Source: an uncultured Candidatus Saccharibacteria bacterium (GTDB lineage: Bacteria > Patescibacteriota > UBA1384 > JACPKC01). Taken from it: a DNA stretch of 64,000 nt. Positions 22,232-42,464 of this stretch are shown piece after piece; the stretch's first letter is position 1, and each line of letters begins with the position of its first letter. The notes below the pieces were generated by a model. That model ran no database searches and was not told where the DNA came from. It saw only the letters and a program-made list of their open reading frames with translations. Location: positions 160,660-224,659 of the forward strand of contig CAYRGD010000001.1 of NCBI GenBank assembly GCA_964423885.1. Direction: 5' to 3'. The position numbers and the translations under genes were made by a program.

Positions 22232-22237
22232 CGATTG

Positions 22238-22816
22238 ATGCTCAAACGGTTGCTGCTTGGTTCACTCATTACGCTCGGCTTGATACTTGCATGGCACGGC
22301 CCGCTTCTGGCGGGCCTCCTGCGTCCTCGCCTGTACGACGCCGGACTTGTCCGCTCGACTGATGCCGAGATCGGACCCGACGAACTGCGGTACGACCGGC
22401 TTGGGATCCGTGCCCCCGTTTCGGTCGACGCGGATACGAGTCCGCTGGTCGAATCCGATTGGTCGAAGATCACGCAATCGCTCATGGAAGGTGTAAGCCT
22501 GTCGTACGAGGGCGACACGTTCACCGATGCCCGGCTCGCGTTCGTGACGGGACATTCGAGCGACGCGACGCGACATGCGTTCGACAGCGTCTTTGCCGGC
22601 CTCGGCCAAGCGGCGCCAGGCGACACGTTCACGCTTGCGGTCGACGGCGAGCGGTTCGACTACCGGGTCGTGGATCGCCGGACCATTGCGCCAGCCGATG
22701 CCGACGCGTTCCGGCTCCTTGCCCCGAGCGACGATTCGGACCGTGTCGCCCTGGTAACCTGTTGGCCTCCGCTTACCACGAAGACCCGTATGGTTGTCAT
22801 CGGCGTACGGCTCTGA
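22238..22816 (+). CDS. Sortase with N-terminal membrane anchor
   Basis: Starts 7 nt after repeat protein 3. His in FVTGHSSDAT, Cys in ALVTCWPP, Arg in RMVVIGVRL. Confidence 0.75.
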   Translation: MLKRLLLGSLITLGLILAWHGPLLAGLLRPRLYDAGLVRSTDAEIGPDELRYDRLGIRAPVSVDADTSPLVESDWSKITQSLMEGVSLSYEGDTFTDARLAFVTGHSSDATRHAFDSVFAGLGQAAPGDTFTLAVDGERFDYRVVDRRTIAPADADAFRLLAPSDDSDRVALVTCWPPLTTKTRMVVIGVRL

Positions 22817-22851
22817 TAGAGATACGGTATCCGAACCAAGGAGGTCTGTGC

Positions 22852-24009
22852 ATGAACCTGCCCGTCCGCCTGCTCATAGTGGCAGTACTCTTCTCGGCCG
22901 TTGTATCCCCTGCTTCGACCAGCGCCCGCGACACGTCCACCCGGCGTTCGATCGTCGTACTCAAATCGAAGGCAGCCCACGACCGCGTGAAGAAGGCGGT
23001 GGCCTTGTCATCCGAGATCGAGGAGATCGCCGACCTGTCGGGCCAGCAGGCACTGGTCACCGAACTCTCCGACGCATCGAAACGGGATCTTGCTCGCAAC
23101 CCCGATGTGCTACGGATCGACGAGGATATCGAACTGTCGGCGGACAGCATCCGGACCGCACCGCAGACGGTGCCGTGGGGCATCGACCGGATCCATGCGC
23201 CGGCCGCGTGGAGTGCCGACACGGGAACGGGTATCGACGTGGCGGTGATCGACACCGGTGTCGACCTCGACCATCCCGACCTGCTGCCGAACATCGGCTC
23301 GGGTATCAATATCGTGAAGCCGAAACGCGCTCCCGACGACGACAACGGCCATGGTACGCATGTGGCCGGGATTATCGGTGCTGCCAGTAATGCGGTCGGG
23401 GTGGTCGGCGTCGCGCCGACTGTCCGGATCCACCCGGTCAAGGTGCTCAAGAGCAACGGAACAGGCTATCTGTCGGATATCATCGCGGGCATTGATTGGG
23501 CGATTGCCAACGGTATGGATGTGATCAATCTGAGTCTTGGTGCCGCGCAGGATATCCCGTCGCTCCATGACGCCGTGCAGCGCGCCGACCGTGCCGGTAT
23601 CGTCGTCGTGGCTGCGGCCGGTAATTCCGGCGGCCCAGTGATGTATCCGGCAGCGTATCCCGAGGTGATCGCGGTCGGTATGATCGGCCAGGACGGCAGT
23701 GTTGACCGGATGTCCTCGCGCGGACCCCAGCTCGACCTGGTTGCTCCCGGGGCAGCGGTCTACTCCACCTATCGTGGCAAGACCTACCGCACCATGACCG
23801 GCACCTCGATGGCCTCGCCTCATGTGGTAGGCGTGGCCGCCCTCCTATTGGCTCGACCGGCTGCCTGCGATACCGACGGCGACGGGCGCTGCTCACGCGA
23901 CGAAGTGGCCCGCCGCCTGGAACGGACCGCGACCGATCTCGGTTCCGCAGGCCGGGATGATGCGTCGGGCTTCGGCCTGGTGAACGCGCAGGCCGCCCTC
24001 GGCTTCTAG
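22852..24009 (+). CDS. Secreted subtilisin-like serine protease (peptidase S8)
   Basis: AGGAGG RBS, signal peptide, catalytic triad motifs VAVIDTGVD, HGTHVAGII, GTSMASPHVVG. Confidence 0.85.
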   Translation: MNLPVRLLIVAVLFSAVVSPASTSARDTSTRRSIVVLKSKAAHDRVKKAVALSSEIEEIADLSGQQALVTELSDASKRDLARNPDVLRIDEDIELSADSIRTAPQTVPWGIDRIHAPAAWSADTGTGIDVAVIDTGVDLDHPDLLPNIGSGINIVKPKRAPDDDNGHGTHVAGIIGAASNAVGVVGVAPTVRIHPVKVLKSNGTGYLSDIIAGIDWAIANGMDVINLSLGAAQDIPSLHDAVQRADRAGIVVVAAAGNSGGPVMYPAAYPEVIAVGMIGQDGSVDRMSSRGPQLDLVAPGAAVYSTYRGKTYRTMTGTSMASPHVVGVAALLLARPAACDTDGDGRCSRDEVARRLERTATDLGSAGRDDASGFGLVNAQAALGF

Positions 24010-26884: not shown

Positions 26885-28090
26885 ATGGCATCGATTCGGA
26901 CACTTCAAGCCCGAAGTATCCTTGATTCCCGGGGTAACCAGACGCTCGAAGTCGACCTGACGCTGGACGACGGCACGGTCGGCCGTGCATCGGTCCCGGC
27001 CGGCGCATCAACCGGCATCCACGAAGCCGTCAGGATCGACGACATGGCCCGGGCGGTTACGAATGCGCAGGCGCTCGGCGAGCGGTTGGCAGGCCAGGAT
27101 CCGGCCCAGCAGGAACGGATCGACCTGGCGCTGCTCGAAGCCGACGGCACCGACGACAAGAGTAAGCTTGGCGGCAACGTGCTGCTCGCGGTATCGATCG
27201 CCTCGTGCGTCGCCGCGGCCGCATCGCTGAAGCGGCCGCTCTACGAGCACATCGCGGCCGTCGCCGACCAAAAGACTCCGCCAGGACTGCCCACGCCGAT
27301 GTTCAATATCATCAACGGCGGCAAGCATTCCGACAACAAGCTTGAGATCCAAGAATTCATGGTCGTGCCGGCCAACGACCGCCGGCCGTTCCGCGACAAG
27401 CTTACGATCGGCCGTGAGCTGTACCAGGCGCTCAAGGCGATGCTCCAGGATATGGGCCAGACGACAGCGGTCGGCGACGAGGGCGGGTTTGCGCCCCGGT
27501 TGACGTCGAACATCGAGGCGGTCGAGTTGCTCGTCCGTGTCATCGAAAACTCGCCGTACAAGCCGCGGACCGACGTCTCGATCGGGATCGACGTGGCAGC
27601 CAGTTCGATTCCCGACCTGGCGGCGGTCACCTACCCGCTCGACCCGATCTCGTTCTACGAGAAACTCGTCAACGACTATCCGGTTTCGATCATCGAGGAT
27701 CCGCTGACTGAAGACGACTGGCAGGGCTGGGCGGCGCTCAACGCGCGGATCGGCAGCCGCGTGGTACTCGTCGGCGACGACCTGTATACGACGAACCCGA
27801 AGCGGCTCAAAGAGGGTATCGACAAGCGGGCGACGAACGCGGTGCTTATCAAGCCCGACCAGATTGGCACGCTGACCGAAACGTTCCAGACGATGCGGCT
27901 GGCCCACGAGGCGGGCTTCACCCGTGTCGTATCCCACCGTTCGGGCGAGACGGAATCGAGCTTCCTGGCCGACCTGGCCGTCGGTACCGGCGCCGAGTTC
28001 TTGAAAGACGGCGCCCCGGCCCGCGGCGAACGTGTCGCGAAGTACAACCAATTATTGCGGATCGCCGAGCAGCTCGAACGGGAGGGGTGA
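26885..28090 (+). CDS. eno: Enolase
   Basis: GGAGG RBS; motifs SRGNQTLEVDL, SGETED-like SGETESSF, KPDQIGTLTE. Confidence 0.9.
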   Translation: MASIRTLQARSILDSRGNQTLEVDLTLDDGTVGRASVPAGASTGIHEAVRIDDMARAVTNAQALGERLAGQDPAQQERIDLALLEADGTDDKSKLGGNVLLAVSIASCVAAAASLKRPLYEHIAAVADQKTPPGLPTPMFNIINGGKHSDNKLEIQEFMVVPANDRRPFRDKLTIGRELYQALKAMLQDMGQTTAVGDEGGFAPRLTSNIEAVELLVRVIENSPYKPRTDVSIGIDVAASSIPDLAAVTYPLDPISFYEKLVNDYPVSIIEDPLTEDDWQGWAALNARIGSRVVLVGDDLYTTNPKRLKEGIDKRATNAVLIKPDQIGTLTETFQTMRLAHEAGFTRVVSHRSGETESSFLADLAVGTGAEFLKDGAPARGERVAKYNQLLRIAEQLEREG

Positions 28091-28094
28091 CAGT

Positions 28095-29675
28095 ATGACA
28101 CGGCAGCGGTTGATCCTGATGGTCTTGGACGGGTTCGGCCTATCCCCCGCTACCCGGGGCAATGCCACCTACATGGCCAAAACGCCCAATCTCGACCGTC
28201 TGATCGCCGAATATCCCTATACGGCCCTTACCGCCCACGGCGCCGAGGTCGGCCTGTCGTGGGGCGAGATGGGTAATTCCGAGGTCGGCCACATGAACCT
28301 GGGCGCGGGGCGTGTCATGCTGCAGGAGGCGACGCGGATCAGCAACGCGATTACGACCGGCACGTTCGCTGACAACGAAGCGCTCCGTGCAGCCTGCGAG
28401 ACAGCCAAACGGACGGGTGCGACGCTCCATCTTATCGGCATCGTCTCGCCTGGTGGCGTCCATGGCCACATCGACCACTTGGTCGCCAGTATCGAACTGG
28501 CGCACCGCGAAGGGGTGGGAGCAGTCTCGCTCCACCTCATCGCCGACGGCCGGGACGCGACGCCGAAGTCATTCGAGAAGTTTTTTCCGAAGCTCGATGC
28601 GGTCGCCCGGCAGGCCGGTGCCAAGTACGCGACCCTGATGGGGCGCTACTACGCCATGGACCGCGACCGCCGGTGGGACCGCGTCCAGGCGGCGTACCAG
28701 GCGATGGTCGTGGGTCAGGGGCAGACCGCCACGACAGTTCCCGAGGCGCTCGCCGCCGCGTACGCACGGAACGAAACCGACGAGTTCATTACACCCACGG
28801 TGATCGATCCGGGCAATGCGGCGTTACGGATCAAGAACGGCGACGTCGTGGTCTTTACCAACTACCGCCCCGACCGCGCCCGACAGTTGTCGCTTGCGCT
28901 CGCCGGTAAGGAATTCAACGGGTTCACCCGTACGCCGCTCGATCTGACCTTCGTCACCTTCAGCGAGTACGGCGTCGAGCTGCGCAACAACACCGTCGCT
29001 TTTCCCGAAGAACCGATCCAGAACCAGCTGGCTCAGGTGTTATCGGATGCCAACCTGCGGCAATTGCACCTGGCCGAGACCGAAAAGTACGCCCACGTGA
29101 CGTACTTCTTCAACGGCGGCCAGGAACAGGCGTTCCCGCTCGAAAAGCGGATGCTCGTCGAATCGCCCAAGGTGCCGACGTACGACCAGGCGCCGGCGAT
29201 GGCAGCCCGCGAGATCACGACGACCTTGCTCGAGGCCTACCAGGCCGACGGGTTCGATGTGGCGATCGTCAATTACGCGAACGGTGACATGGTCGGCCAC
29301 ACGGGCAATCTGCAGGCGACCATCGAAGGGATCGAGACGATCGACGAGGCGTTCGGTGCGATTGCGGCTGCGGTCGAGCACGCCGGCGACATTCTGCTCA
29401 TTACCGCCGACCATGGCAATGCCGAACAGAAGATTCATCCGGACACCGGCGAGATCGACAAGGAACACACCGCGAACCCGGTTCCCTTGCTACTCGTCGA
29501 CCCTAAGTACCGGCACCGGCCGCAAAGCGGCGACGTGAAACTGGCGTTCATGTCGACCCAAGCTATCGGGATCCTGGCCGACGTCGCACCGACGATCCTC
29601 GAACTGCTCCACGTGCCCCAACCGAAGGACATGACCGGCCAAAGCTTGCTCCCCGTCTTAAAGCGCGCCCGGTAA
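28095..29675 (+). CDS. gpmI: 2,3-bisphosphoglycerate-independent phosphoglycerate mutase
   Basis: iPGM motifs LMVLDGFG, catalytic Ser in GNSEVGHMNLGAGR, metal site TADHGNAEQ. Confidence 0.9.
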   Translation: MTRQRLILMVLDGFGLSPATRGNATYMAKTPNLDRLIAEYPYTALTAHGAEVGLSWGEMGNSEVGHMNLGAGRVMLQEATRISNAITTGTFADNEALRAACETAKRTGATLHLIGIVSPGGVHGHIDHLVASIELAHREGVGAVSLHLIADGRDATPKSFEKFFPKLDAVARQAGAKYATLMGRYYAMDRDRRWDRVQAAYQAMVVGQGQTATTVPEALAAAYARNETDEFITPTVIDPGNAALRIKNGDVVVFTNYRPDRARQLSLALAGKEFNGFTRTPLDLTFVTFSEYGVELRNNTVAFPEEPIQNQLAQVLSDANLRQLHLAETEKYAHVTYFFNGGQEQAFPLEKRMLVESPKVPTYDQAPAMAAREITTTLLEAYQADGFDVAIVNYANGDMVGHTGNLQATIEGIETIDEAFGAIAAAVEHAGDILLITADHGNAEQKIHPDTGEIDKEHTANPVPLLLVDPKYRHRPQSGDVKLAFMSTQAIGILADVAPTILELLHVPQPKDMTGQSLLPVLKRAR

Positions 29676-29679
29676 CCCG

Positions 29680-31314
29680 ATGCCGGGCGTCACCGACATC
29701 ACAACCCAGCCGAAACCGGTCGTCCTCGCCATCCTCGACGGTTGGGGACTGTTGCCGTCGTGGCAACGTAACGCGATTGTCTCGACGCGGACCCCGACCT
29801 TCGACTACCTCTGGAAACACTATCCGCACGCCGTCCTGCAGTCGTTCAAGATGATCGGCAACCGCGACGGCCAGATCCGCTCGAGCGAGATCGGCCACGC
29901 CTCGATCGGTTCAGGCCGGATCGTCAAGGATGACCTGACCGAGCTGAATGCGGTGATCGAAAACGGCCGGTTTTACGGCAACGAGGTCTTGGGCGAGGCG
30001 ATGGCGCACGCGGTTGAGACGGGTAAGGCGGTGCATCTCATCGGGATCATGTCCGAGGGAGGCATCCAGGGATCGCTCGGCCATGCGGTCGCGCTCGTCA
30101 AGCTTGCGAAGCAGCGCGGCGTCAAGGAGCTCTGGCTCCATCCGATCACCGACGGGCTCGACGTCCCCGACCGGTCGGCGCCCGGGTACTTGCAAGCGTT
30201 GCAAGCGGCCTTGGAGGTGGAAGGTATCGGCATCGTCGCTACCGTACTCGGTCGCGCCTCGGCTATGAACCAAGACGGCGACTGGCGTGCTACCGCCCTT
30301 GCCTACCGCGCCTTGCTCTACGGCGACGGCCCGACGGCATCGTCGGCGCGCGAGGCGCTCGAAGCTGGATACGCGCGGGATGCGACCGACGCGACACTCC
30401 TGCCGACCGTCATCGCTCCTCCGGGCGAATCCCGGACGTTCGTGAAGGGAAGGATCCGGCCCGGCGACGTGGTCGTTGCCTGGAACTTCCGCCACGACGG
30501 CATGGAACAGCTCGTGCGCGCGATGCTCGACCCGTCCGCGTTGCGCCGCTACGCGGTGAGTCGCCAACTTCCGCTCGCGAAAACGTCCCGGTTCGTCACG
30601 CTCACCGACTACCGGATCACGCTTCCGGGCCTTGCCGCCGCGTTCCCGGCCGCGGAGCTTGGCAACACCCTCGCCGACCTGCTCGAACGGCACAATAAGA
30701 CCCAACTCCGGGTCGCTGAAACGGCCAAGTACCCGCACATCACGTACTTCTTCAACGGCGGACGGGCGGCGCCATACCCGCACGAGACCCGGATCATCAT
30801 TCCGTCGCGCAAGAGCCCGCCCGACCGTGCGCCGGAACTCGCGACCGGCGAGGTAGTCCGCCAGCTGGAACGACAGATCGACGCCAAGGCCGCCGATTTC
30901 ATGCTCGCCAATCTGCCGAACCTGGACGTGGTTGCCAAGACCGGCGACATGGCTGCCACGGCCAAGGCGGTCCAGGTAGTCGACGAGGCGCTCCGCCGGA
31001 TCGCGAACGCGACGCTGGCCGTAGGCGGCGTCCTGCTTGTCACCGCCGACCACGGCAACGCCGAGCAGATGCGCAGCCGTCCGACGGCGAGCCAGCGCCA
31101 TACGATCAGCCCCGTCCCGTTCCTGCTTATCGGCGAGGCGTACAAACGCACGCACGCGCCCGAGCGGGTCGATACCGAAGACGTGGTCGCCATGATGGTC
31201 CGGTCCGACCACACGCTTGCCGACGTCGCACCGACGATCCTCGAGCTGTTCGGCATCGCCAAGCCGAGCGACATGACCGGCAGCTCGCTGCTTGGCGAGC
31301 TGTCCACAAGATGA
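29680..31314 (+). CDS. Second, divergent iPGM-family paralogue (tandem to gpmI)
   Basis: LAILDGWG, RSSEIGHASIGSGR, TADHGNAEQ; only ~30% identical to upstream gpmI by eye. Starts 5 nt after the gpmI stop. Confidence 0.75.
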   Translation: MPGVTDITTQPKPVVLAILDGWGLLPSWQRNAIVSTRTPTFDYLWKHYPHAVLQSFKMIGNRDGQIRSSEIGHASIGSGRIVKDDLTELNAVIENGRFYGNEVLGEAMAHAVETGKAVHLIGIMSEGGIQGSLGHAVALVKLAKQRGVKELWLHPITDGLDVPDRSAPGYLQALQAALEVEGIGIVATVLGRASAMNQDGDWRATALAYRALLYGDGPTASSAREALEAGYARDATDATLLPTVIAPPGESRTFVKGRIRPGDVVVAWNFRHDGMEQLVRAMLDPSALRRYAVSRQLPLAKTSRFVTLTDYRITLPGLAAAFPAAELGNTLADLLERHNKTQLRVAETAKYPHITYFFNGGRAAPYPHETRIIIPSRKSPPDRAPELATGEVVRQLERQIDAKAADFMLANLPNLDVVAKTGDMAATAKAVQVVDEALRRIANATLAVGGVLLVTADHGNAEQMRSRPTASQRHTISPVPFLLIGEAYKRTHAPERVDTEDVVAMMVRSDHTLADVAPTILELFGIAKPSDMTGSSLLGELSTR

Positions 31315-31412
31315 CCGCGTGCGAAACAGAGCCGATCGGCGTATGATTGGTGCAAGCGCATCCGCGCGTATGACTTCAGTACATCCGACGCATCGAACCT
31401 AAGGAGGGTTGC

Positions 31413-32468
31413 ATGCACATGAATGCCCTGCGGCGGGTCAGGCAGGCCGCAGCAAGAGGGACAGGACTCGCACTCGTCGGCCTAATGGGGAGCGTGTCCG
31501 TTCTTGCTCTGCCCTTGTCCGCCACCGCAGCGGAGCTGACAGCCGAAAGCACCTCGCTGTCTGATCCGACCATCAGCCATGCGGCCACGACCTACACGGT
31601 CACGCAGAGTAGCGTGTCGCTGAGCGCGATCAAGTGTCTCCAAGTCGTGTTCAGCGTGAACGCCGACGGCACTGGCGGCGTTCCCACCGGCATGAGCACG
31701 ACCTCGGCCACGTTCAATGGCAGCTCGACCTACGTGCCGACCCCGGCATCCTGGTCGGTCGACGCGACCACGAACGGCACGGTCAACATTACCTTCGCGA
31801 CCGGCGAAACGCCGGCCTCCGCGTCGGGACGGACGATCGTGTTGGGCAGTATCACGAACGGCTCCACGGCCAATACCACCTACTACACCACCGTGCAGAC
31901 GTTCAATAACACCGACTGCTCGACCTCGCCGGTCGACGATGGTGGCCAGTCCACGTACGTGTTCGTGGACGGTGTGGTGGTGACTGCGACGGTCAACCCG
32001 ACGCTCACCTTTACGGTCGATTCCACCACTTGTAACCTGGGTACACTGACGTCTTCGAGTACCGGTAACTGCAGCCATACGATAACTGCGGCATCGAACG
32101 CGACGAGCGGCTACGTGATCTCGTACATCGCGAGTCCGACGCTCACGAGCGGCGGTAACACGATTACGGCCAACGGTGCGTCCGCGGTCGCCAACGCGAC
32201 CAACACCGAACAGTTCGGTCTCAACTTGGTGGCGAATAGCTCGCCTTCGGTCGGGGCTAACCCGTCGGGCGGTACCGGCGCTGCAGCGGCCAACTACAAT
32301 ACGGCGAACAGCTTCGCGTTCACGACTGCGGGCGCGACCGTCGCGACCACAGCTGGTCCGAGCGCGCTGACGACATATACGGTATCGTACATCGCGAACA
32401 TCGACGCGGTTACCGAAGCCGGCCTGTACACGAAGACGCAGACGTATACCATCACAGCAACGTACTAA
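31413..32468 (+). CDS. Secreted beta-rich surface protein, WxL-like C-terminal region (paralogue A)
   Basis: AAGGAGGG RBS, signal peptide ...ALPLSATAAE, Thr/Ser/Asn-rich beta segments. C-terminus EQFGLNLV...TYTVSYIANIDAVTEAGLYTKTQTYTITATY. Confidence 0.55.
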   Translation: MHMNALRRVRQAAARGTGLALVGLMGSVSVLALPLSATAAELTAESTSLSDPTISHAATTYTVTQSSVSLSAIKCLQVVFSVNADGTGGVPTGMSTTSATFNGSSTYVPTPASWSVDATTNGTVNITFATGETPASASGRTIVLGSITNGSTANTTYYTTVQTFNNTDCSTSPVDDGGQSTYVFVDGVVVTATVNPTLTFTVDSTTCNLGTLTSSSTGNCSHTITAASNATSGYVISYIASPTLTSGGNTITANGASAVANATNTEQFGLNLVANSSPSVGANPSGGTGAAAANYNTANSFAFTTAGATVATTAGPSALTTYTVSYIANIDAVTEAGLYTKTQTYTITATY

Positions 32469-32487
32469 GAAAGGAGAGGGGCATATT

Positions 32488-33492
32488 ATGACTACGCATC
32501 GCATGAAACGTCTTGCTTTCGCCGCTGGCGTCGCGGCACTCGCGGGAATGGTAGGAGCGCCGCTCATCGCGGCTGCGCAAGCCGCCGCGACTACGACTAG
32601 CGCCAACGCGGTCGACGTATCGATCACGCCGCTCATCCGCGACGTGACAGCCAAACCCGGCGATACCTTCACGGGTTCGATCGAGGTGAAGAACGAATCG
32701 GATGCCAAGCAGACCTTTTTCCCGGCTGCCCGCGACTTCACGGCGTCGGACGACTCCACGAGCGGCGCACCCAAGTTCCTTGAGACAGCCGGTGTTCCCG
32801 AACAAAGCCTGTCGTCATGGGTCAAGTTCAAGCAGACTTCGGTGCCGATCGACGCGAAAAAGTCCGCGATGATCGACTACACGGTCGTCGTCCCCGCGAA
32901 CGCGGAACCGGGCGGCCACTATGCCGGCATCTTCGCTTCCACTCAGGCGCCTGATGTCACTGGCGGCTCGGGTGTCGCGATCGCCGCGCGGGTCGGCTCC
33001 CTGCTCCTGCTGACGGTGTCCGGCGATATCCGGACCTCGGCCGAGATCTCATCGTTCAAGACTGACAAGTCTGTCTACCAGTCCGGCCCGATCAGCTTTA
33101 TTGCCGACCTCAAGAACGACGGCAATATCCACTTCAAGCCGAAAGGTACGATCGATGTGAAGAACGGCACCATGGTCAAATCGGTGGCGTTCAACGAGAA
33201 TGGCGGCAACGTCTTGCCGTCGAGCGTCCGCGAGTTCACCAGTAACCTGGACGGCAACTTCGGATTCGGGCGGTACACGGCGACGCTGACGCTCACTGCG
33301 CAGGCATCGAACGGAGACACGATTCCCCTCACCTCGGTGGTCAGTTTCTGGGTGATCCCGATGAGCACCGTCCTCATCGCGCTCCTTATTCTCATCGTGC
33401 TCTACATGCTGCTCAAGAACGGCATGAAGGAAAGCAGCGCGAAGGGTGGCAGTAACATGGCGGCTCCGGCAACCAAGAAGGCGTCGAAGTAA
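32488..33492 (+). CDS. DUF916/DUF3324-like cell-surface protein with C-terminal TM anchor and Lys-rich tail (CscA-like)
   Basis: Signal peptide; VDVSITPLIRDVTAKPGDTFTGSIEVKNESDAKQTFF resembles the DUF916 N-terminal consensus as I recall it; second half YAGIFAS...IAARVGSLLLL is DUF3324-like. C-terminal TM VIPMSTVLIALLILIVLYMLL followed by KNGMKESSAKGG. Confidence 0.55.
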   Translation: MTTHRMKRLAFAAGVAALAGMVGAPLIAAAQAAATTTSANAVDVSITPLIRDVTAKPGDTFTGSIEVKNESDAKQTFFPAARDFTASDDSTSGAPKFLETAGVPEQSLSSWVKFKQTSVPIDAKKSAMIDYTVVVPANAEPGGHYAGIFASTQAPDVTGGSGVAIAARVGSLLLLTVSGDIRTSAEISSFKTDKSVYQSGPISFIADLKNDGNIHFKPKGTIDVKNGTMVKSVAFNENGGNVLPSSVREFTSNLDGNFGFGRYTATLTLTAQASNGDTIPLTSVVSFWVIPMSTVLIALLILIVLYMLLKNGMKESSAKGGSNMAAPATKKASK

Positions 33493-33513
33493 CACGCGGC
33501 GCAGATCGGAACA

Positions 33514-33547
33514 ACGACGGATCCCACAGGGTCCGTCGTTTTGTTTG
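33514..33547 (+). terminator. Intrinsic terminator after the first WxL-like/DUF916 pair
   Basis: ACGACGGATCC-cacag-GGTCCGTCGT (10-bp stem, one mismatch) followed by TTTTGTTTGGG. A TATACT -10-like hexamer lies downstream at 33562-33567, before the next gene. Confidence 0.55.
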
Positions 33548-33586
33548 GGCTAGTGCATTGCTATACTGGATCCGACATCGGAGGGA

Positions 33587-34612
33587 ATGATGGCGCAGGT
33601 GTTCAATCGGTTACTTGTCGTAGTTTGTGTGGCACTGACGGCCTTGCAGTTCTTCCCGTTGCCGCTTGAGGCCGCCGAACTGACTGCCGAGAGCGTCGCA
33701 CTCACTGATCCGACCGTCGGCCAAGCGGGTGTCACCTACGATATCGTGCTGGGAGGGCAATCTACGGCGGCGATCCGATGCATCACCGTTCGGTTCACCG
33801 GGACAATCGGCACGAACGACCCGCCTGCCGGCATGGATATTGGTAGCGCGGTTTTCGATGCGGCCAGCACGATCGTGCCTACGCCTGCGGCTTGGTCGGC
33901 AGTCGGTGTGAACGGTACCGGTATCGTAATGATTACGAATGCGCTCGGTGAAAATCCGGCCGGCGGTGCAAACCGGACGCTTATCCTGAACGGTATCACG
34001 AACGGCAGCGCAGGCAATACTACCTACTACGCCGAGGTAAATACGTTCGCCGATGCAGGGTGCACCGCCCTTGTCGATACCGACGGCCAGGCAGCCTTCG
34101 TGTTCACCTCCGGGGTACTGGTGACATCCACGGTAAACGACGTGCTCAACTTCTCGCTCACACCGGGGTGTTCTGCTGGTGAGCTCAATCAGGCAGCCGC
34201 CAAGACCTGTACGCTCGAGATGCATGCCTCGACTAATCATCCGACCGGGTACAGCGTGTCGTACTCGGCAGTGGAGACTATGCACGAAGCGTCCCACTTG
34301 GACACGATCGCTGCGGTAGGCGCTACCGCCCAGACGAGTGCTCCCGGCACGAAGCAGTTCGGGTTCAACCTGGTTGGTAACATGGTGCCGACAACAGGTG
34401 CCGACCCGGTCGGCGGTACCGGCGCTGCGTTCGGCCAGTACGCCATCGCGGACAAGTTTGCGTTCACGACCGCCGGCGGCACGATCGCCAGCGCTGCTTC
34501 TTCGAGTAGCGATACGCAGTATACGGTGTCGTACCTGGTCAACGTCGAGCCGAACATGGTGTCCGGTTCCTACGTAGCACAGCAGACGTACACGATCGTG
34601 GTGAATCCATGA
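33587..34612 (+). CDS. Secreted beta-rich surface protein, WxL-like C-terminal region (paralogue B)
   Basis: Colinear with paralogue A (AAELTAES...; TPAAWS; NTTYYAEVNTF; KQFGFNLV). C-terminus QYTVSYLVNVEPNMVSGSYVAQQTYTIVVNP. Confidence 0.55.
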   Translation: MMAQVFNRLLVVVCVALTALQFFPLPLEAAELTAESVALTDPTVGQAGVTYDIVLGGQSTAAIRCITVRFTGTIGTNDPPAGMDIGSAVFDAASTIVPTPAAWSAVGVNGTGIVMITNALGENPAGGANRTLILNGITNGSAGNTTYYAEVNTFADAGCTALVDTDGQAAFVFTSGVLVTSTVNDVLNFSLTPGCSAGELNQAAAKTCTLEMHASTNHPTGYSVSYSAVETMHEASHLDTIAAVGATAQTSAPGTKQFGFNLVGNMVPTTGADPVGGTGAAFGQYAIADKFAFTTAGGTIASAASSSSDTQYTVSYLVNVEPNMVSGSYVAQQTYTIVVNP

Positions 34613-35235
34613 CGCGGCGATTTATTGCGCTCGGTATACTTACGGCCGTCGTAAGCTGGTCGGCAGTGACGCAGGGGGCAGATACGATTTCGATCGAACC
34701 GGCCACTGTGTCAGTACGTGTCGCGGCCGGTGAGGTGACGCTGCAAACGGTGTACTTCACGAACCGTAGCGGCGACACCAAGGCGTTCAGCGTCGAGCGG
34801 TCGGATTACCGGCCTGACGCCTCGTCACGGAACGCGTTCGAATTTCTGCCGGCCGGGAGTACCGACGATAGCATCCATCCGATGCTGGATGTCACGCCGT
34901 TGCGGTTCGAGCTCGGGTCGGGCAAGACGCAGGAACTGCTGGTTCGTATCCGGCCGGCAACGACGGCAAGCAACGGTAACTACAAAGGCGCGCTCTTTGT
35001 CGGCGAGGATCCGGGCGCTAGCGTCGACGCGTCACTCCAGGTGCTTGGGCGTGTCGGTACGATGATCGGCGTGACCGTGACCGACGGCCGGCCCCCCGCC
35101 GGCGTCCATCCGTTCACCGGCCAGCCGAACGCGTTGGCTGTCGCAGCGATCGCTATCCTTGCCCTCTTCTTCCTAGGTGTCGGCTTGGCAGCCGCCCGCA
35201 AGGCGCGCCAGCTGGAAGCCGATCGCATCTCCTAA
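34609..35235 (+). CDS. Short DUF916-like cell-surface protein with C-terminal TM anchor
   Basis: Signal peptide, beta-sandwich-like segment ISIEPATVSVRVAAGEVTLQTVYFTNRSGDTKAF, C-terminal TM LAVAAIAILALFFLGVGLAAA followed by RKARQLE. Start overlaps the preceding gene. Confidence 0.45.
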   Translation: MTRRFIALGILTAVVSWSAVTQGADTISIEPATVSVRVAAGEVTLQTVYFTNRSGDTKAFSVERSDYRPDASSRNAFEFLPAGSTDDSIHPMLDVTPLRFELGSGKTQELLVRIRPATTASNGNYKGALFVGEDPGASVDASLQVLGRVGTMIGVTVTDGRPPAGVHPFTGQPNALAVAAIAILALFFLGVGLAAARKARQLEADRIS

Positions 35236-36590
35236 TGACTGCTAGCCCTGAGGATGCCCAAGCGGCGGTCGAACGGCTGCGCCAGGGCGGCTACGAGGCC
35301 TACTGGGTCGGTGGCTGCGTCCGGGATATCCTGCTCGGCCGAACGCCGAACGATTACGACGTGGTGACGGATGCGGTGCCTGACGACGTCGCCGCCTTGT
35401 TCGAACGGCACCATCCGGTCGGCAAGGCCTACGGCGTCATGCTGGTCGGCATCGGTTCCAGTCAGATCGAGGTCGCCACGTACCGGGCGGAACAGGGCTA
35501 CGCCGACCGCCGCCGGCCCGATACTGTCCGTTGGACTGACGCGAAGGGCGACGTGTTTCGCCGCGATTTCACCGTGAACGGCCTGCTCTACGATCCTGTC
35601 AGTCGCCACGTGGTGGATTACGTGGACGGCCAACGCGACCTCATGATCAAGATTATCCGCTGCATCGGCGATCCGGACGAACGCATCCGCGAGGATCCGC
35701 TCCGAATTTTGCGAGCGGTCCGATTGAAGAATGCCTTGGGTTTCCAATACGACCAGGCAACGTACCGGGCACTTGTCCGGCATGCGGCCGAGGTGTCGCA
35801 CGTGGCTTGGGAGCGGATCGGCGCGGAACTGACGCTCATGCTCGGCCATCCTTCCCGCGCCCAGGCGATCCGAGACCTTGACCGACTCGGCCTACTCCCA
35901 CTGCTCTTGCCCGAACTCGAAGCGACCAAGGGCGTGCCGCAGCCGATCGATTTCCACGCCGAAGGCGACGTGTTCGACCACTTGCTCCGTTCGCTCGCGT
36001 CGGTACCGGCGGATTCGCCAGCCTTTCTGGCGTGGGCTGTCTTGCTTCATGATATTGCCAAGCCCGCGACGCTTGCCTATCCCCCGTCGGCGAGCGCAGG
36101 CAGGATTACCACCTACGGCCATGCCAAGCAGTCAGCTGCGGTCGCGGAACGGATCCTGCGCCGGTTCCGACGACCTGCATCCGAGGTGCGGACGGTCGGT
36201 TGGCTCATTGACCGTCATATGAGCCTGCCGGCGCTCGAGCGGTTGCGTCCGCATAAACGAGAAGCGTTCTTGAGTGATCCGCGCTTTCCATGGTTGCTTG
36301 AGCTCCACCATGCCGACGCCGCCGGTGCAATACCGGTCGACCTGTCGTTCTATGCGAAGAACTTACAGCACTACCAGGAATGGAAACGGCTCCGCGCTAC
36401 CGTCGGATCATTCAAGTCGCTCGTCAACGGCCACGATTTGGTCGAAGCCGGTATTCCGTCGGGGCCGCATATGGGGGAGATCCTGCGTTTGGTACGTGAC
36501 GCAGAATTGACGCACCGCATAAACTCGAAGGCCGAGGCGATCGCGTACGCCAAAGAGCGGTATGCCAGTTACGGCAATGCGAACGCGTAA
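35235..36590 (+). CDS. cca: CCA-adding enzyme / tRNA nucleotidyltransferase (PolyA_pol head plus HD domain)
   Basis: GGCVRDILLGRTPNDYDVVTD nucleotidyltransferase motif, RDFTVNGL, HD domain LLHDIAKP. Confidence 0.8.
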   Translation: MTASPEDAQAAVERLRQGGYEAYWVGGCVRDILLGRTPNDYDVVTDAVPDDVAALFERHHPVGKAYGVMLVGIGSSQIEVATYRAEQGYADRRRPDTVRWTDAKGDVFRRDFTVNGLLYDPVSRHVVDYVDGQRDLMIKIIRCIGDPDERIREDPLRILRAVRLKNALGFQYDQATYRALVRHAAEVSHVAWERIGAELTLMLGHPSRAQAIRDLDRLGLLPLLLPELEATKGVPQPIDFHAEGDVFDHLLRSLASVPADSPAFLAWAVLLHDIAKPATLAYPPSASAGRITTYGHAKQSAAVAERILRRFRRPASEVRTVGWLIDRHMSLPALERLRPHKREAFLSDPRFPWLLELHHADAAGAIPVDLSFYAKNLQHYQEWKRLRATVGSFKSLVNGHDLVEAGIPSGPHMGEILRLVRDAELTHRINSKAEAIAYAKERYASYGNANA

Positions 36591-37249
36591 ACCGACACCG
36601 TGGTCGAGTACATGCCCGGCTGTTGGCTGAACGGCACGTTGAGCTTATAGGTGACAGTAGTGTCGTCCGGTGAGCTGATCGACTGCCCTAGAATGTGGTA
36701 GGTCGTCGGTGATGCGGTAGGAATCGCCGCGAACGCATTACCGTTGTCCCACTTGGGATCGACGTTCGTGCCAGCGCTAACACTGAAACCCAGGCCGGTG
36801 CCGCTGTATGTGGTCGGGCCGTCGATGTCGCTGCCATAGTCGCCGATCGTCGTTACCGTATCGGTATGCGTCATAGGCGCCGCCTTCGAAATTGCCAGGC
36901 TGTACCCAGCCGACGAATCCGTGCTGACCGTACTGGTTGTTGTGCCGCTGACAGGGCTTCCCGGTACAAGGTTACCAAGATCGACCGTCGGCGAGTTAAG
37001 GGTCAAGGTTACCACCGATCCCGTGACTGCCGGAAAACCGGTATCCAGATAGTAGTTGTCGCTGTTCGCAACGCCGACGATGGGCGCACCCGACGAACGG
37101 ATACCGAAGTTGTCCGAGCTTATGCTGTTGCCAAAGCTATGGATGCCGAACTGCGGGATCTTGTAGCTGTCCGATTCGAGCGCCAAGGCGCTGGCCGGAA
37201 TCACGATACCCAGAGTGAGCGTGGCGATGGCGATGATCCGTTTGTCCAT
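36569..37249 (-). CDS. Secreted beta-rich surface protein, WxL-like C-terminal region (paralogue C, short)
   Basis: Signal peptide MDKRIIAIATLTLGIVIPASALA. C-terminus TVTYKLNVPFSQQPGMYSTTVSVYAFALP aligns with the C-termini of paralogues A and B. 3' end overlaps cca convergently by 22 nt. Confidence 0.5.
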   Translation of the reverse strand: MDKRIIAIATLTLGIVIPASALALESDSYKIPQFGIHSFGNSISSDNFGIRSSGAPIVGVANSDNYYLDTGFPAVTGSVVTLTLNSPTVDLGNLVPGSPVSGTTTSTVSTDSSAGYSLAISKAAPMTHTDTVTTIGDYGSDIDGPTTYSGTGLGFSVSAGTNVDPKWDNGNAFAAIPTASPTTYHILGQSISSPDDTTVTYKLNVPFSQQPGMYSTTVSVYAFALP

Positions 37250-37255
37250 ACCCGC

Positions 37256-39706
37256 TTACTGCTGGATGGCGTAGTCGAACGTCGCATTCTTCGGCGCCGG
37301 CGTTGCAAAGGTGACCGTGAAGCCGTCGTTCGTTTTGTCGGTGACTGCGACCGTCGTCGCCCAGCTCGGCGTGATCGTAACTGCGTACGGTACTAGCGTA
37401 TCCGGCAGTGCGTCTTCGGGCGGTGTCAGGCCGAGTTTCGTGACGACGTACGATATGGCGTTTTTATCGACTGCCAGATCGATGCCGCGAGTCTTAGCGT
37501 TCCCTTTGATAGCGCCAGCGAGCGCAAGGTCGCCGCCGACCGACACGTCCTTGGCGAAGGTGGCGGTATCGCCGACCGCAAGAGTCCCTGCGAACTCGAC
37601 CGCTCCGGCGACATGGAGGGTGGCCAAGTGCGGCGAATCATTGACGGGCAGGTGGCCGTCACGGGCGTTCAATTCCTGGATCGCCTTGACCGCGTAGGCC
37701 AGGATGCCGTTGTAATTGAGCGACAGGTAGTCGTCGCCGCTGTTCTTATGGACCAGACCGGGCAAGACCTGCTGCACGTCTTGGGCAAGGAAGCCGCTCG
37801 AACCGGTCTGGCCCGAAATAAAGTCGTACGTCTTGGGCGAGAGCTGTTCGATTACCGACAAGCCGGTCGCAATATCGTTCACGTTCTTTTTAAGCCGCGC
37901 ATCCGATGCACAGGTGCCGATCATGCCGTTCGTATCGATACAAAGCTCATCGCCGCCAGCGGCCGACTCAATCGCGGTGTCGTAGAAGTTACCAGCGTCA
38001 ACGAACACGTTGTTGGTAACCGTTAGGCTTTGATCGGAATCAAGCATCATGCCGACGCCGTCAATGCCATGATCGTGCGCGTCAGTCGAGGTGCCGAAGA
38101 GCAGTGACATCTGGTCGCTTCCGTCTTGGAACGCCCACATACCGGCTACCGGTCGCGTTTGGCTGTAGTTGCTGGAATCAAGCGGGTCGTAGGTCGACCA
38201 GAACACACCGCCCTTATGCGTATCTTGTGCTGCATCGTTCGTGATTGTGATGCCGTTATCCTGGGTGTAGTTCAATAAACTACCGGTGTTGCCCATGCCG
38301 CTGCCAAAATGCGTATGATTGTACACACTTAATGTCGGTGTCGTTTCAGTGCTGCTGTCACCGACCGATACGTGGCCATTCGAGCCAAGGACGAATCCCC
38401 AGTTCTCAACGTTCCCGTTTTCGGCATCGCTGGTCGTGCCCATGCGGATCTGCGTGCCGGTACTTCCTTGCGCCAGATACATGACGCCGATCGGGCGGTT
38501 GGTATCACTAGTCCAGGTGATACCCGGAATGATTGTGTCGTCATGGTAGTCGCTGTTGATGACGAATGCGGCATAGACCGGGTTTGACATTACGTTGTCG
38601 AAGCCGTCGCCGCCTTGGTAGGCGCTGCTGTTGGAGTCGATGAATGTCGAGACCCTTCCTTGTGGATTCGTGGTCATGACGCCGAACTTACCGTCTGTCG
38701 TGAAGCCCGCAATGTCACAGCACCCGTTCGAGATAATGAGGTTGCCGTCGGTGCCGTCGCCCGGATCGGCTGGGTTTCCTACCCAGATGCGAAAGTCGCG
38801 GTCGCCAACGCCTGTTTCGGCAGCGGTGGCCACAAGATGTAACGACGATGGCCCCAGAAAGAGATCCCTCCATCGCGAGGTATCCGAACCCAGGCTGTAC
38901 GCATTGTCAGCATCGGGGCCAATGCTATCGCCCGCTTCGATACGGAAGTCATTGGTATTTGACGTGCCGAGTCCGACGCTGCCACCGTCGTCCGATATGA
39001 TCACGCTCCCCTTGGATCCGTCTTGTGTTGATCGGAGTACTAAATTATCCCCTCCGTCGACGCCCCCATACGCTGTCTGCCCGCCGGACACGCCGTCACG
39101 GATCAGGAAGTTTTCTGACGACAAGCCGTCCAGCTTGTCACTGTTGAACGCGTACGGAGCAGCGCCCAGGCGGATGCGCGGGGTCATTTCGTCGTCGCCC
39201 TCGACCGTAATGCCGAGCCACCATTCGTCGGTATTGAAGTCCACACCGCTCAAGTCATTGAGCGAGCCGAGCATGGTCGAGAAGATGCCGTCGACGGTCG
39301 CGATCTGGTCGCCGCCGGTGTGGGATTCACTCCAGACCGCGCCGCCGCCGCTCGGTACCGTATATAGCTGAAAGACCACATCGTAATTACCGTTCGATAC
39401 GACGGTGCCGTCGGGGTTGGTGAGACGGCCCTGGAACGGGATCTGGGCGAAGATGCCGTCCGCGGCCTTCGGGTTTTCGGCTGCGCGCGGACTGAAGATA
39501 ACCAGGCCGGCCATAAGGAATGCGGCCAACGCGACAAAGAGATGGGCAGGGACCCTGACCGGGCTATGGTGCCAATAGCGGTACCAGCCGACGCGATCGT
39601 GCAGGTACTCATGGATATGACGCGTGCCGGGAATATATCCGCGGCAGTTGCCACTGCTGTCGCACGTGTAGTTCGTAATGGTTCCCTCCCGATATGCACG
39701 CATCAT
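37256..39706 (-). CDS. Large secreted beta-helix/fibre-like protein with a phage tail-fibre-type intramolecular chaperone autoprocessing (peptidase S74-like) domain near the C-terminus
   Basis: ATG at 39706; the ORF-track extension beyond it is antisense to clpB. N-terminal signal/[24 protein letters not shown], Gly/Asp/Ser/Thr-rich beta-solenoid-like body. Motif [52 protein letters not shown]...[13 protein letters not shown] at ~37680-37910. Ends 6 nt before WxL-like paralogue C. Confidence 0.65.
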
Positions 39707-39727
39707 ACCAAACCGCGGCCGACAATA

Positions 39728-39756
39728 TTCCACAGGCCCGCGATGCGCGGTATACT
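39728..39756 (+). promoter_or_regulatory. Candidate sigma70-type promoter for clpB
   Basis: TTCCAC, 17-nt spacer, TATACT, ~25 nt upstream of the AAAGGAGTGAGG RBS. No CIRCE or HAIR inverted repeat seen. Confidence 0.35.
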
Positions 39757-39782
39757 GCTTCCATATAAAAGGAGTGAGGACT

Positions 39783-42464
39783 ATGGATCTCAACCGGTTT
39801 ACCATGAAGACGCAAGAAGCGCTGTTCCAGGCGCAGAACGTGGCATTGGAACGGCAGCAACAGCAAGTGGACGTCGCGCACGTCATGCTGGCGCTCATCG
39901 ACCAGACCGACGGCATCGTCCGGCCGCTGTTGCAAAAAATGAACGTGAGCGAGCAATTGCTCCGTTCGCGGATCAACCAACTCCTCGAACTGCTTCCCCG
40001 CACCTCGTCGCCGGCCGGGCAGTTCGGCCAGGTGTATATCGCGGAATCGCTCCGCCGGGTGCTTGTCCAGGCCGAAAAAGAAGCGGCTGCCCTCAAAGAC
40101 GAATTCATCAGTACCGAGCACATCGTGCTCGCTATCCTTGAGGTGCCGACGCCGGTGCGGCAGGTGTTGAACGCGCTCGGTATCCACCGTGAGGAAACGC
40201 TGAAGGCGTTGGTCGATGTGCGCGGTAACCAACGGGTGACCGACCAGTCGCCCGAAAACAAGTACCAGGTACTTGAAAAGTACACGGTCGACCTGACGGC
40301 CCAGGCCCAAGCCGGCAAGCTCGATCCGGTCGTGGGCCGCGACGAAGAGATCCGCCGGGTCATGCAGGTACTGTCGCGCCGCACCAAGAACAATCCCGTA
40401 CTGATCGGCGAGCCGGGCGTGGGCAAAACGGCTGTGGTCGAAGGCTTGGCGCAGCGGATCGCGGCCGGCGACGTGCCGGAATCGATCGCGAACAAACGCC
40501 TGCTCGCGCTCGACCTGGGGTCGCTGATTGCCGGTACCAAGTTCCGCGGCGAGTTCGAGGACCGTTTGAAGGCGATCCTCAAAGAAACCGACCAGGCCGA
40601 CGGCCAGATCATCCTCTTTATCGACGAGCTGCATACCATTGTCGGTGCCGGCGCGACCGAAGGCGCTATGGACGCCGCGAACCTCTTGAAGCCCGCGCTG
40701 GCCCGCGGCCGGCTGCGCGCGATCGGCGCGACCACGCTCAAGGAATACCAGCAGCACATCGAGAAGGACGCGGCCTTGGAACGCCGCTTCCAGCCGGTGA
40801 CGGTCAAGGAGCCGTCGGTCGAGGACACGATCGCGATCCTGCGCGGCATCAAAGAGAAGTACGAAGTGCACCACGGCGTCAAAATCACCGATTCAGCGAT
40901 CGTGGCGGCGGCTGTGCTGTCACACCGCTACATCTCCGACCGGTTCCTGCCTGACAAGGCGATCGACCTTATCGACGAGGCGACCTCGGCCCTGCGGATG
41001 CAGATCGATTCGATGCCAGAGGAGCTCGACGCCTTGAAGCGCCGGATCATCCAGCTTGAGATCGAACGCGAAGCTTTGAAGCGCGAGACGAGTAAAGAAG
41101 GTAAAGAGCGTTTGAAGGAGTTGCAGGAAGAGCTCGGGACACTCCGCGAAGAGGCCGGCGAAAAGGAATTGCGCTGGAAGAACGAGAAGGAAATCATTAC
41201 CGGCTTGCGCGAGGTGTCGATGAAGCTCGACCAGGCGCGGGTCGATGCCGAGCAGGCCGAACGGAACGGCGAACTCGAGAAAGTGGCGATGATCCGCTAC
41301 CAGCAGATCCCCGAGCTCGAGAAGAACCGCCTGGGATTAAGCAAGAAGCTCGCGGACATCCAGAAGGAACACAAGTTTCTGAAAGAGGAGGTGAGCGAGG
41401 AAGACATCGGCTTGGTGGTGGCGCGGTGGACCGGTATTCCGGTCGTGCGGATGCTCGAGAGCGAGTCGATGAAGCTTGCCCGGCTCGAAGAAGAGCTCAA
41501 GAAGCGCATCATCGGCCAAGACGAAGCGATTTCCGCGGTTTCGAACGCAGTCCGACGCTCGCGGGCCGGCATCGCCGAGGAATCGAAGCCGATCGGCTCG
41601 TTCATTTTCTTGGGACCGACGGGCGTGGGTAAAACCGAACTCGCCCGGGCGCTCGCCTCATTCCTCTTCAACGACGAACGCGCGATGATCCGGGTCGACA
41701 TGAGCGAGTTCATGGAAAAACACGCGGCCAGCAAACTCATTGGCGCACCGCCAGGGTACGTCGGCTACGAAGAGGCCGGGCAGCTCACTGAACAGGTGCG
41801 ACGCAAGCCGTTTTCGGTAATCCTCTTCGACGAGATCGAAAAGGCGCATCCCGACGTGTTCAATTTGTTATTGCAGATCCTCGACGACGGCCGGCTGACC
41901 GATGCCAAGGGACGGGTCGTCAACTTCAAGAACGCGATCATCGTGATGACAAGTAACATCGGCAGCCAGATCATCCAGGACTTCGCCGCCAACAAGCAGA
42001 CCTCGGCGATCGGGTACAAGACCACCGAACGCGAGCAGACTGACGAAGAACTGATGAAAGGGCGGATCACCGAAGAACTCCAGCATTTCTTTAAGCCGGA
42101 GTTCCTGAACCGCATCGACGAAATTATCGTCTTCCATGCCCTGACCGAACAGCAAATCGGCTTCGTCGTCGACGTCCAGCTGCAACGGGTGCTGCAACGG
42201 ATCCAGCAGCAGCGCGGGATTACGCTCGAGATCACCGATGACGTGAAGGCCGAAATCGCGAAGCGGGGCTACGACGCCGCGTACGGCGCCCGGCCGTTGA
42301 AGCGCGTCATCCAGCGCGACTTGCTCGACCCGCTCGCGCTGCTCTTGCTTCAGCACGAGATTCCTGAAGACACGGTGATCCGCGTCGTTCTGAACGATGG
42401 CGCGATCGTGATCGAACCGCCGGCAACAGCCCGCTTGCTTGCGAAGGCCGAGGCTGCGGCATAA
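39783..42464 (+). CDS. clpB: ATP-dependent chaperone ClpB
   Basis: Clp_N, D1 Walker [16 protein letters not shown], long coiled-coil M-domain, D2 [15 protein letters not shown]. 893 aa. Confidence 0.9.

Follow-up and report, generated by a model that had tools for sequence, protein, structure and literature searches.

Two pilin-chaperone gene pairs of a high-G+C Candidatus Saccharibacteria contig as the probable core of a Pam-type pilus locus with DUF916/WxLIP-related anchored chaperones

A stretch of 64,000 nucleotides from an uncultured Candidatus Saccharibacteria bacterium (assembly GCA_964423885.1, contig CAYRGD010000001.1, positions 160,660 to 224,659; hereafter the window, G+C ~62%) carries two tandem gene pairs at 31413-35235 which, with good confidence, form the central part of a Pam-type pilus locus; the host belongs to the Candidate Phyla Radiation (CPR, Patescibacteria). 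Each pair codes for a putative pilin (A1, A2) followed by a putative membrane-anchored chaperone (B1, B2), and by analogy with the Pam system the pilus would most likely be assembled by donor-strand exchange. The Pam pilus became known from cryo-EM filaments of the CPR parasite Ca. Mycosynbacter amalyticus, in which the pilins PamA and PamB were identified (Troman et al., bioRxiv 10.64898/2026.03.03.709456). According to the same preprint, the C-terminal domain (CTD) of a Pam pilin accepts the linker of its neighbour by donor-strand exchange, the pilins have paired cysteines, the chaperones PamC and PamD combine a PapD/FimC-like fold with a C-terminal transmembrane (TM) helix, and a tail-fibre-like gene is a constant neighbour of pam operons. 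NCBIfam covers the system with the models NF058581 for the pilin CTD and NF058579 for PamT.

The layout of two pairs, described in a first-pass annotation of this DNA, was confirmed: four co-oriented open reading frames (ORFs) lie on the plus strand in the order A1, B1, A2, B2, and the start of B2 overlaps the stop of A2 by 4 nt. The features of the two pairs, all on the plus strand, are listed below.

31413-32468, plus strand: A1, putative Pam-type major pilin, 351 aa (NF058581, AlphaFold2 model)
A1 residues 1-40 (nt 31413-31532), plus strand: signal peptide
A1 residues ~41-185, plus strand: N-terminal beta-sandwich
A1 residues ~186-197 (nt 31968-32003), plus strand: conserved linker GVVVTATVNPT, putative donor strand
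A1 residues 198-351, plus strand: C-terminal Pam pilin domain
32488-33492, plus strand: B1, predicted membrane-anchored two-domain chaperone of PamC/PamD type, DUF916/WxLIP homologue, 334 aa
B1 residues ~1-33, plus strand: signal peptide
B1 residues ~41-178, plus strand: domain 1
B1 residues ~183-290, plus strand: domain 2
B1 residues 292-314 (nt 33361-33429), plus strand: TM helix followed by a basic tail (the AlphaFold2 model places the helix at 292-320)
33513-33547, plus strand: intrinsic terminator between the pairs (terminator scan and sequence reading)
33562-33567, plus strand: TATACT, possible -10 element upstream of A2 (read from the sequence)
33580-33585, plus strand: GGAGGG, ribosome-binding site directly before the ATG of A2 (read from the sequence)
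33587-34612, plus strand: A2, second putative Pam-type pilin and paralogue of A1, 341 aa (NF058581, BLASTP to A1)
34609-35235, plus strand: B2, short anchored chaperone paralogue, 208 aa (hhalign against the B1 family)
B2 residues ~24-160, plus strand: single DUF916-like beta-sandwich, preceded by a signal peptide
B2 residues ~175-197, plus strand: TM helix with a basic tail

Profile searches identify A1 and A2 as two paralogous predicted major pilins of Pam type. Both exceeded the curated cut-off (55 bits) of NF058581 (CPR_Pam_pilin_C), A1 with 124.5 bits over residues 202-351 and A2 with 97.2 bits, and a Pfam scan of the two proteins gave no match. BLASTP aligned A1 and A2 colinearly over 318 residues (46% identity, E 4e-80), and A2 shares the two-domain plan of A1. 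The first-pass description of secreted, Thr/Ser/Asn-rich proteins agrees with the N-terminal hydrophobic signal segment of each protein, with the common mature start AELTAES and with a joint content of Thr, Ser, Asn, Ala and Gly of 61% in A1 and 50% in A2. The AlphaFold2 (AF2) model of A1, with a predicted local distance difference test (pLDDT) score of 85.6, comprises two all-beta domains joined by a linker whose residues 188-193 fall below a pLDDT of 50. Conservation among 115 homologues reaches its maxima at A1 residues 191-200 (linker and first CTD strand), 261-270 and 321-330 (further CTD strands). Four mature cysteines occupy equivalent positions in the two proteins, forming the pairs 75/169 and 207/220 in A1 and 65/159 and 195/208 in A2. 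These traits of A1 agree with the preprint, in which the donated linker and the CTD groove are named as the best-conserved parts and paired cysteines are described.

The predicted architecture of B1 is exactly that given for PamC and PamD in the preprint: a Sec signal, a PapD/FimC-like fold, a C-terminal TM helix and a gene beside that of a pilin. Its AF2 model (pLDDT 86.8, predicted template modelling score 0.74) shows two beta-sandwich domains and a C-terminal helix, and in the fold comparison the two-domain chaperones of chaperone-usher systems stood further down the list (CsuC 11.7, CfaA 11.7, EcpB 11.6, SafB 11.4, FimC 11.0, PapD 10.0), together with RbmA at 11.4. Among the families matched at E<=0.01 by 34 members of the B1 family, PapD_N and PapD_C (PF00345/PF02753) were absent. 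PF06030 (WxLIP_PGBD, formerly DUF916) was matched at this level by 27 of the 34 members, and its gathering score was exceeded in 8 of the 10 that were examined; B1 itself scored 17.9 bits, below the cut-off of 27.3. Over 205 columns and both domains, the profile of the B1 family could be aligned (hhalign 92.6%, E 4.6e-7) to a 'DUF916 and DUF3324' protein of Bacillus tropicus, which lies in a bona fide WxL cluster, and tblastn with a CPR member of the chaperone family found actinobacterial DUF916 proteins at E 3e-16. Judged by these profile comparisons, B1 and B2 are homologous to DUF916/WxLIP proteins, B1 being a sequence-level member of the lineage. The resemblance to DUF916 noted in the first-pass annotation is thereby borne out, and so is the ending of both B proteins in a TM helix plus basic tail. 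For the second domain, which B2 lacks entirely, none of the 34 members matched DUF3324 (PF11797) at E<=0.01, although the hhalign comparison with the Bacillus WxLIP extends through residues 195-269 of its PF11797 region.

B2 is 23% identical to B1 over 165 aa (BLASTP), and the alignment of the two families (hhalign 99.1%, E 1e-18) covers domain 1 of B1 only, B2 being devoid of domain 2. The earlier statement that paralogues are colinear over their whole length fails for the B proteins. Proteins of ~205 aa that align with B2 end to end make up a small conserved family, and in three further loci (L090, L092, L088) a gene of this type always follows an A2-like gene. Conservation and synteny of this short form speak against a truncated pseudogene, a reading of B2 that was therefore discarded.

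A survey of gene order in 80 loci, each from a different GTDB species, revealed a pilin gene of ~350 aa directly followed by a chaperone gene of ~330 aa in nearly all of these CPR species loci, in which a short subunit of 180-250 aa is also common. The labels represented include Saccharibacteria, Woykebacteria, Nomurabacteria, Uhrbacteria, Falkowbacteria, Wirthbacteria, Veblenbacteria, CPR2 and Minisyncoccia. A pattern scan of GTDB species genomes confirmed 492 relatives; named homologues are mostly labelled as CPR, and others carry generic or evidently wrong labels of metagenome-assembled genomes (MAGs). Nine typical CPR pilin-chaperone loci (L002, L011, L017, L024, L027, L043, L058, L061, L063) lie on contigs labelled 'uncultured Gammaproteobacteria bacterium' or 'Candidatus Nanoarchaeia archaeon', which are probably wrong MAG taxonomy. 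In a number of loci (L007, L020, L079, L057 and others) the pilin-like protein adjacent to the chaperone either remained under the cut-off of NF058581 (34, 37, 29 and 22 bits) or had no match; labels of such loci include Parcubacteria, Paceibacterota, Minisyncoccia, Woykebacteria, Wirthbacteria, Uhrbacteria, Veblenbacteria and, in one case, Saccharibacteria. Since many pilin-like proteins fall below this cut-off, current annotation will miss a large part of the family. Some subunits reach 750-1350 aa, with large N-terminal additions.

The closest labelled relative of the locus lies on a MAG contig (L090, GCA_020429585.1). Ten genes of the window recur there with their order unchanged, namely eno, gpmI, gpmI, A1, B1, A2, B2, cca, a gene for a short PamT-like subunit (T) and a gene for a tail-fibre-like protein. 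Eight of the alignments cover most of the protein at 46-69% identity, and two are of part length (B2 44%, fibre protein 41%). A1, A2, B1, B2 and T are each orthologous to their counterparts at 44-54% (A2 47%, T 54%). For the L090 chaperone, an identical protein carries the NCBI label Candidatus Berkelbacteria. The synteny indicates that the locus was duplicated into two modules long ago, that A2 has long been paired with the short B2 and that both states have been maintained, and together with the linkage of A and B genes across the 80 loci it places the association of A and B beyond chance. The G+C contents of the two contigs differ, ~62% in the window versus 45% in L090; a G+C as high as ~62% is unusual for CPR bacteria.

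The two pairs are separated by the only terminator-like site within 31000-37600, a hairpin at 33513-33540 whose 12-bp stem contains 7 GC pairs and closes on a loop of 4 nt, followed by the T-rich tail TTTGTTTGGG. The clean intrinsic terminator reported at first reading was thus found again, as was the TATACT hexamer, which possibly acts as a -10 element upstream of A2. The accompanying claim of two separate transcription units is, from the sequence, plausible and not more, because a sigma-70 scan of 31000-37600 gave no two-hexamer promoter.

On the model of the Pam preprint and of chaperone-usher biology, assembly may proceed as follows. The pilins would be exported by Sec, and B1, which its C-terminal helix would keep at the cytoplasmic membrane, would cap the open CTD of a newly exported pilin with a strand of its own (donor-strand complementation). 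The expected donor, by its alternation of hydrophobic residues, is the last strand of domain 1, which reads GVAIAARVGSLLLLTV in B1 and VLGRVGTMIGVTV in B2. The linker of the next pilin would then displace the strand of the chaperone (donor-strand exchange), whereby the pilin would be handed over to the growing fibre. No usher or outer membrane would be involved, and none would be needed in a single-membrane cell; among all genes accounted for at 26.7-42.5 kb there is no usher-sized beta-barrel gene. B2 would be dedicated to A2, either in the role of a minimal chaperone or by anchoring it in the membrane. The 226-aa PamT-like subunit, encoded by a divergently oriented gene, might sit at the tip of the pilus, with the adjacent tail-fibre-like protein as a possible distal adhesin.

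As read here, the locus is an ordinary member of the Pam system. It shares with that system a CPR host and Sec-exported pilins of two domains, in which the Pam CTD goes together with a conserved linker and with cysteines in pairs. Further common traits are the presence of more than one pilin paralogue in the operon, the C-terminal TM helix of the PapD/FimC-like chaperones, the tail-fibre-like neighbour and, as a candidate, the single-domain PamT-like subunit. The window locus differs in being smaller, in having its two pilin-chaperone modules parted by a terminator and in having one single-domain chaperone. It sits amid eno, two gpmI genes and cca. For M. amalyticus, an ATP-synthase and CorB context of pam has been described (bioRxiv 10.64898/2026.03.03.709456). 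Besides the G+C of the genome, the closest labelled relative sets it apart, a 'Berkelbacteria' MAG and not a member of Saccharimonadia or Microgenomatia. Chaperone-usher pili (Pap, Fim, Csu, CFA/I) are more distant: unlike them, the Pam-type locus would work without an usher or an outer membrane, the chaperone is membrane-tethered and without a PapD_N/PapD_C match, and the pilins carry an extra N-terminal domain. The donor strand of Pam pilins is moreover the inter-domain linker and not an N-terminal extension (bioRxiv 10.64898/2026.03.03.709456).

Several observations weigh against the assignment to the Pam system. The link to the type proteins of M. amalyticus, PamA/PamB (PDB 25PZ, 25QA) and PamC/PamD (WP_260763277.1, WP_260763284.1), runs only through the NCBIfam family models, and T scored 41.5 bits on the PamT model NF058579, far below its cut-off of 240. 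Neither a PamR-like (RbmA-like) terminator nor PamE was recognised in the window, where no dedicated model for them was used. Fold searches with the A1 model returned only generic tandem immunoglobulin (Ig), beta-sandwich and MSCRAMM-like matches. The chaperone steps of the Pam assembly model themselves rest on AlphaFold predictions (bioRxiv 10.64898/2026.03.03.709456), and for the window we infer filament formation, strand exchange and the complementation of A1 by B1 from that preprint and from chaperone-usher biology. Sequence searches of the Protein Data Bank, for which A1 and B1, the profiles of both families and the WxL profile described below served as queries, yielded nothing useful: the copies searched contain no PamA or PamB, and the structure of a WxL domain has yet to be solved.

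The function of B2 admits the strongest alternative. Instead of a chaperone, B2 may be a PamR-like terminator or anchor which gives or takes the last strand and so ties the A2 fibre to the membrane. We regard this as unlikely, yet as a serious competitor. Its single domain is homologous to domain 1 of the chaperones at the 99.1% given above, and the alternating hydrophobic residues of its last strand (VLGRVGTMIGVTV) fall at the donor-strand site of chaperone-usher chaperones. In addition, B2 shows neither the tandem fibronectin type III architecture of RbmA nor an obvious N-terminal extension.

A different view of the whole locus follows the first-pass annotation, which had compared it to the WxL (Csc) surface clusters of Firmicutes. 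In this case the A proteins would be bound non-covalently to peptidoglycan through their C-terminal domains and stabilised by the B proteins, forming a static adhesion platform without any filament. WxL clusters combine small proteins of a single WxL domain with large ones that carry this domain at the C-terminus and with an anchored WxLIP of the order DUF916-DUF3324-TM (Hassan et al. 2023, PMC10599100). The comparison gains from the genuine relationship of B1 to DUF916/WxLIP proteins, from the C-terminal TM helix with basic tail in B1 (292-314) and B2 (175-197), from a similar architecture of single-domain subunit, larger subunits with a C-terminal domain and anchored two-Ig protein (PMC10599100, PMC9772566), and from a weak collinear similarity of the Pam CTD to the WxL domain that is described below. 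The window nevertheless departs from these clusters at several points. None of the 36 members of the pilin family examined matched the WxL domain (PF13731) at E<=1; the only Trp residues of mature A1 (114) and mature A2 (103) lie in the N-terminal domain, so that the C-terminal domains of both are free of Trp and of Trp-x-Leu motifs, and A1 and A2 pass the Pam pilin model instead. PF11797 is likewise not detected, and no ending of LPxTG type occurs among the window ORFs of at least 70 aa (an LPXTG partner, CscD, is frequent in WxL clusters and not obligatory). The host belongs to CPR and not to Firmicutes, and relatives of A1 and A2 were resolved by cryo-EM as helical filaments and rank among the most abundant proteins of M. 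amalyticus (bioRxiv 10.64898/2026.03.03.709456), in contrast to the peptidoglycan-bound platforms described for WxL proteins. A static, peptidoglycan-bound complex is therefore quite improbable and less likely than a pilus assembled by donor-strand exchange. Hardly credible is the third reading, in which unrelated secreted beta-rich surface or S-layer proteins stand beside anchored Ig proteins with no assembly relationship: the generic beta-sandwich and MSCRAMM-like fold matches and the low-complexity, Thr/Ser/Ala-rich A proteins would suit it, against the strict A-then-B adjacency across CPR classes, the 4-nt overlap of A2 and B2, the curated Pam pilin model matched by A1 and A2, and the ten-gene synteny with L090.

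With the Pam-type pilus retained as the preferred reading, the relationship of its pilins to WxL proteins was followed with profiles, using an expanded Pam CTD profile (164 sequences) and a WxL-domain profile (73 sequences) for which homologues had been collected starting from a WxL protein of Bacillus. Full-length profile-profile comparison of the A family with WxL gave a probability of <1%, and WxL alignments overall stayed at <5%. A greedy domain-level alignment of the Pam CTD with WxL reached a score of 23.4 (P 0.009) over 133 collinear columns, above all 40 block-shuffled controls (maximum 22.1, mean ~14). It pairs TNAxSGYxI with TDNRGxxGWxL and AGxYxxTvTYtaT with YxsTLTWTL. The C-terminal segments FGLNLV and YTVSYIANI, taken at first reading as the two WxL motifs with Trp replaced, were consequently dropped as such, the alignments setting the first WxL motif opposite SGYVISY. 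The NCBIfam Pam models found no match in Bacillus WxL proteins or in the partner proteins of actinobacterial DUF916 genes. Homology of the Pam pilin CTD with the WxL domain is, on these alignments, no more than suggestive, and the WxL analogy of the first-pass annotation was half right: it is correct where the B proteins are concerned, and unproven with regard to the A proteins.

DUF916 loci of Actinomycetota (Clavibacter, Cellulosimicrobium, Nonomuraea, Streptomyces) provide a further point of comparison. Like the CPR loci, they code for an anchored DUF916 protein (59-92 bits against the CPR family hidden Markov model, HMM) and have the gene of a secreted partner directly before it, ~210 aa in Clavibacter, Cellulosimicrobium and Nonomuraea and 677 aa in Streptomyces. 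Unlike the CPR loci, they have glycoside hydrolase neighbours, and the CTD of the partner is WxL-like (hhalign 96.2%, E 2.5e-9) with the second Trp replaced by Leu, as opposed to only 1.3% for the Pam CTD. The same collinear mapping of these partners onto the Pam CTD was obtained at P 0.039. Pairs of secreted partner and DUF916 protein occur on Actinomycetota plasmids or chromids (L082 5098-6912, L085 4058-5900, L086 2393-4254, L083 2777-5825), and in one locus (L087 1331-2941) the partner protein was seen by itself. The partners are annotated as 'hypothetical' or not at all, several lie beside GH43 or LamG genes, and the Clavibacter partner, the only one scanned, had no Pfam match. DUF916 proteins were already annotated in plasmids of Actinomycetota, homologues in Deinococcus are without DUF916 annotation, and public data already include precomputed PF06030 matches for CPR proteins; as regards the DUF916-type protein, the first-pass suggestion that the window newly extends the system outside Firmicutes can hence not be upheld.

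Taken together, Pam pili, WxL/WxLIP (Csc) clusters and the DUF916 loci of Actinomycetota and Deinococcus might be branches of one ancient, usher-less surface-fibre system of single-membrane bacteria with a membrane-anchored chaperone. On this view the WxL domain and the Pam CTD would be homologous, and WxL proteins would be assembled by donor-strand complementation or exchange instead of simply adhering to peptidoglycan. We put this forward tentatively, as a proposal that we would sooner doubt than assert. Its chaperone half is well supported; its subunit half, for which there are two weak, mutually consistent collinear profile alignments (P ~0.01 and 0.04), is suggestive.

The predicted homology of Pam chaperones and DUF916/WxLIP proteins is the point of wider interest. 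WxL and DUF916 have zero mentions in the Pam preprint (bioRxiv 10.64898/2026.03.03.709456), 'chaperone' and 'pilus' have zero mentions in the WxLIP paper, and our literature search, of incomplete coverage, found no work combining DUF916 with Patescibacteria or WxL with Saccharibacteria. The homology would bridge two bodies of work that leave each other uncited in the papers examined, one on PapD/FimC-like Pam chaperones and the other on peptidoglycan- and host-binding 'WxLIP' proteins. If they form one family, strand complementation may also build the WxL clusters of enterococci, listeriae and lactobacilli, to which roles in virulence and gut adhesion have been ascribed. Pam pili, whose pilins the preprint terms CPR-exclusive (bioRxiv 10.64898/2026.03.03.709456), would in that case gain cultivable and genetically tractable cousins. 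The conserved, one-domain anchored B2 offers a simple test case for how much of a chaperone suffices. For annotation, the locus can be described as a Pam pilus locus that codes for two pilins, two anchored chaperones (a full and a minimal one), a fibre protein and a subunit resembling a tip, and its origin in a high-G+C CPR lineage akin to a Berkelbacteria-labelled MAG adds evidence for Pam pili beyond Saccharimonadia and Microgenomatia.

The pilus genes are embedded between the glycolysis genes (eno, two gpmI) and cca, and in the whole window the HMMs of the pilin and chaperone families match only A1, A2, T, B1 and B2. The neighbouring features downstream of the two pairs are as follows.

36569-37249, minus strand: T, PamT-like single-domain subunit of 226 aa, candidate tip subunit (signal peptide and a domain of the Pam pilin C-terminal type)
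37256-39691, minus strand: tail-fibre-like secreted or anchored protein, ~780-810 aa (start uncertain, near 39650)
39678-42464, plus strand: clpB

T is without the N-terminal sandwich of the pilins; the local pilin-family HMM matches its residues 79-223 (E 2.5e-10), and its score on NF058581 (22.4 bits) is under the cut-off of 55. The tail-fibre-like protein matches Pfam Peptidase_S74, an intramolecular chaperone of endosialidases and tail fibres (E 1.3e-12), and weakly Bdello_MAT_N. A longer ORF of 1210 aa at 37256-40888 on the minus strand was rejected as a gene, its 5' third being antisense to clpB; further minus-strand ORFs at 40.9-42.2 kb, with a first-position G+C of 0.28-0.36, are likewise clpB antisense.

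Directly upstream of the pilus genes, two tandem copies of gpmI (2,3-bisphosphoglycerate-independent phosphoglycerate mutase) follow enolase at 28032-31314. The second copy scored 445 bits on TIGR01307, and the duplication is kept in L090, whose copies are 69% and 46% identical to those of the window. A possible further surface cluster at 19353-24009 codes for a secreted protein of 289 aa and a protein of 638 aa with a signal peptide, a C-terminal TM segment and a basic tail, both without Pfam or NCBIfam match. After these two genes comes an S8 subtilisin/mycosin-like protease (TIGR03921, 204.7 bits, below its cut-off). Outside the window, the same contig (292,834 bp) codes for a 237-aa paralogue, P0203, which shares 58% identity with the C-terminal half of A1, has a precomputed PF06739 match and could be a PamE-like or PamT-like component.

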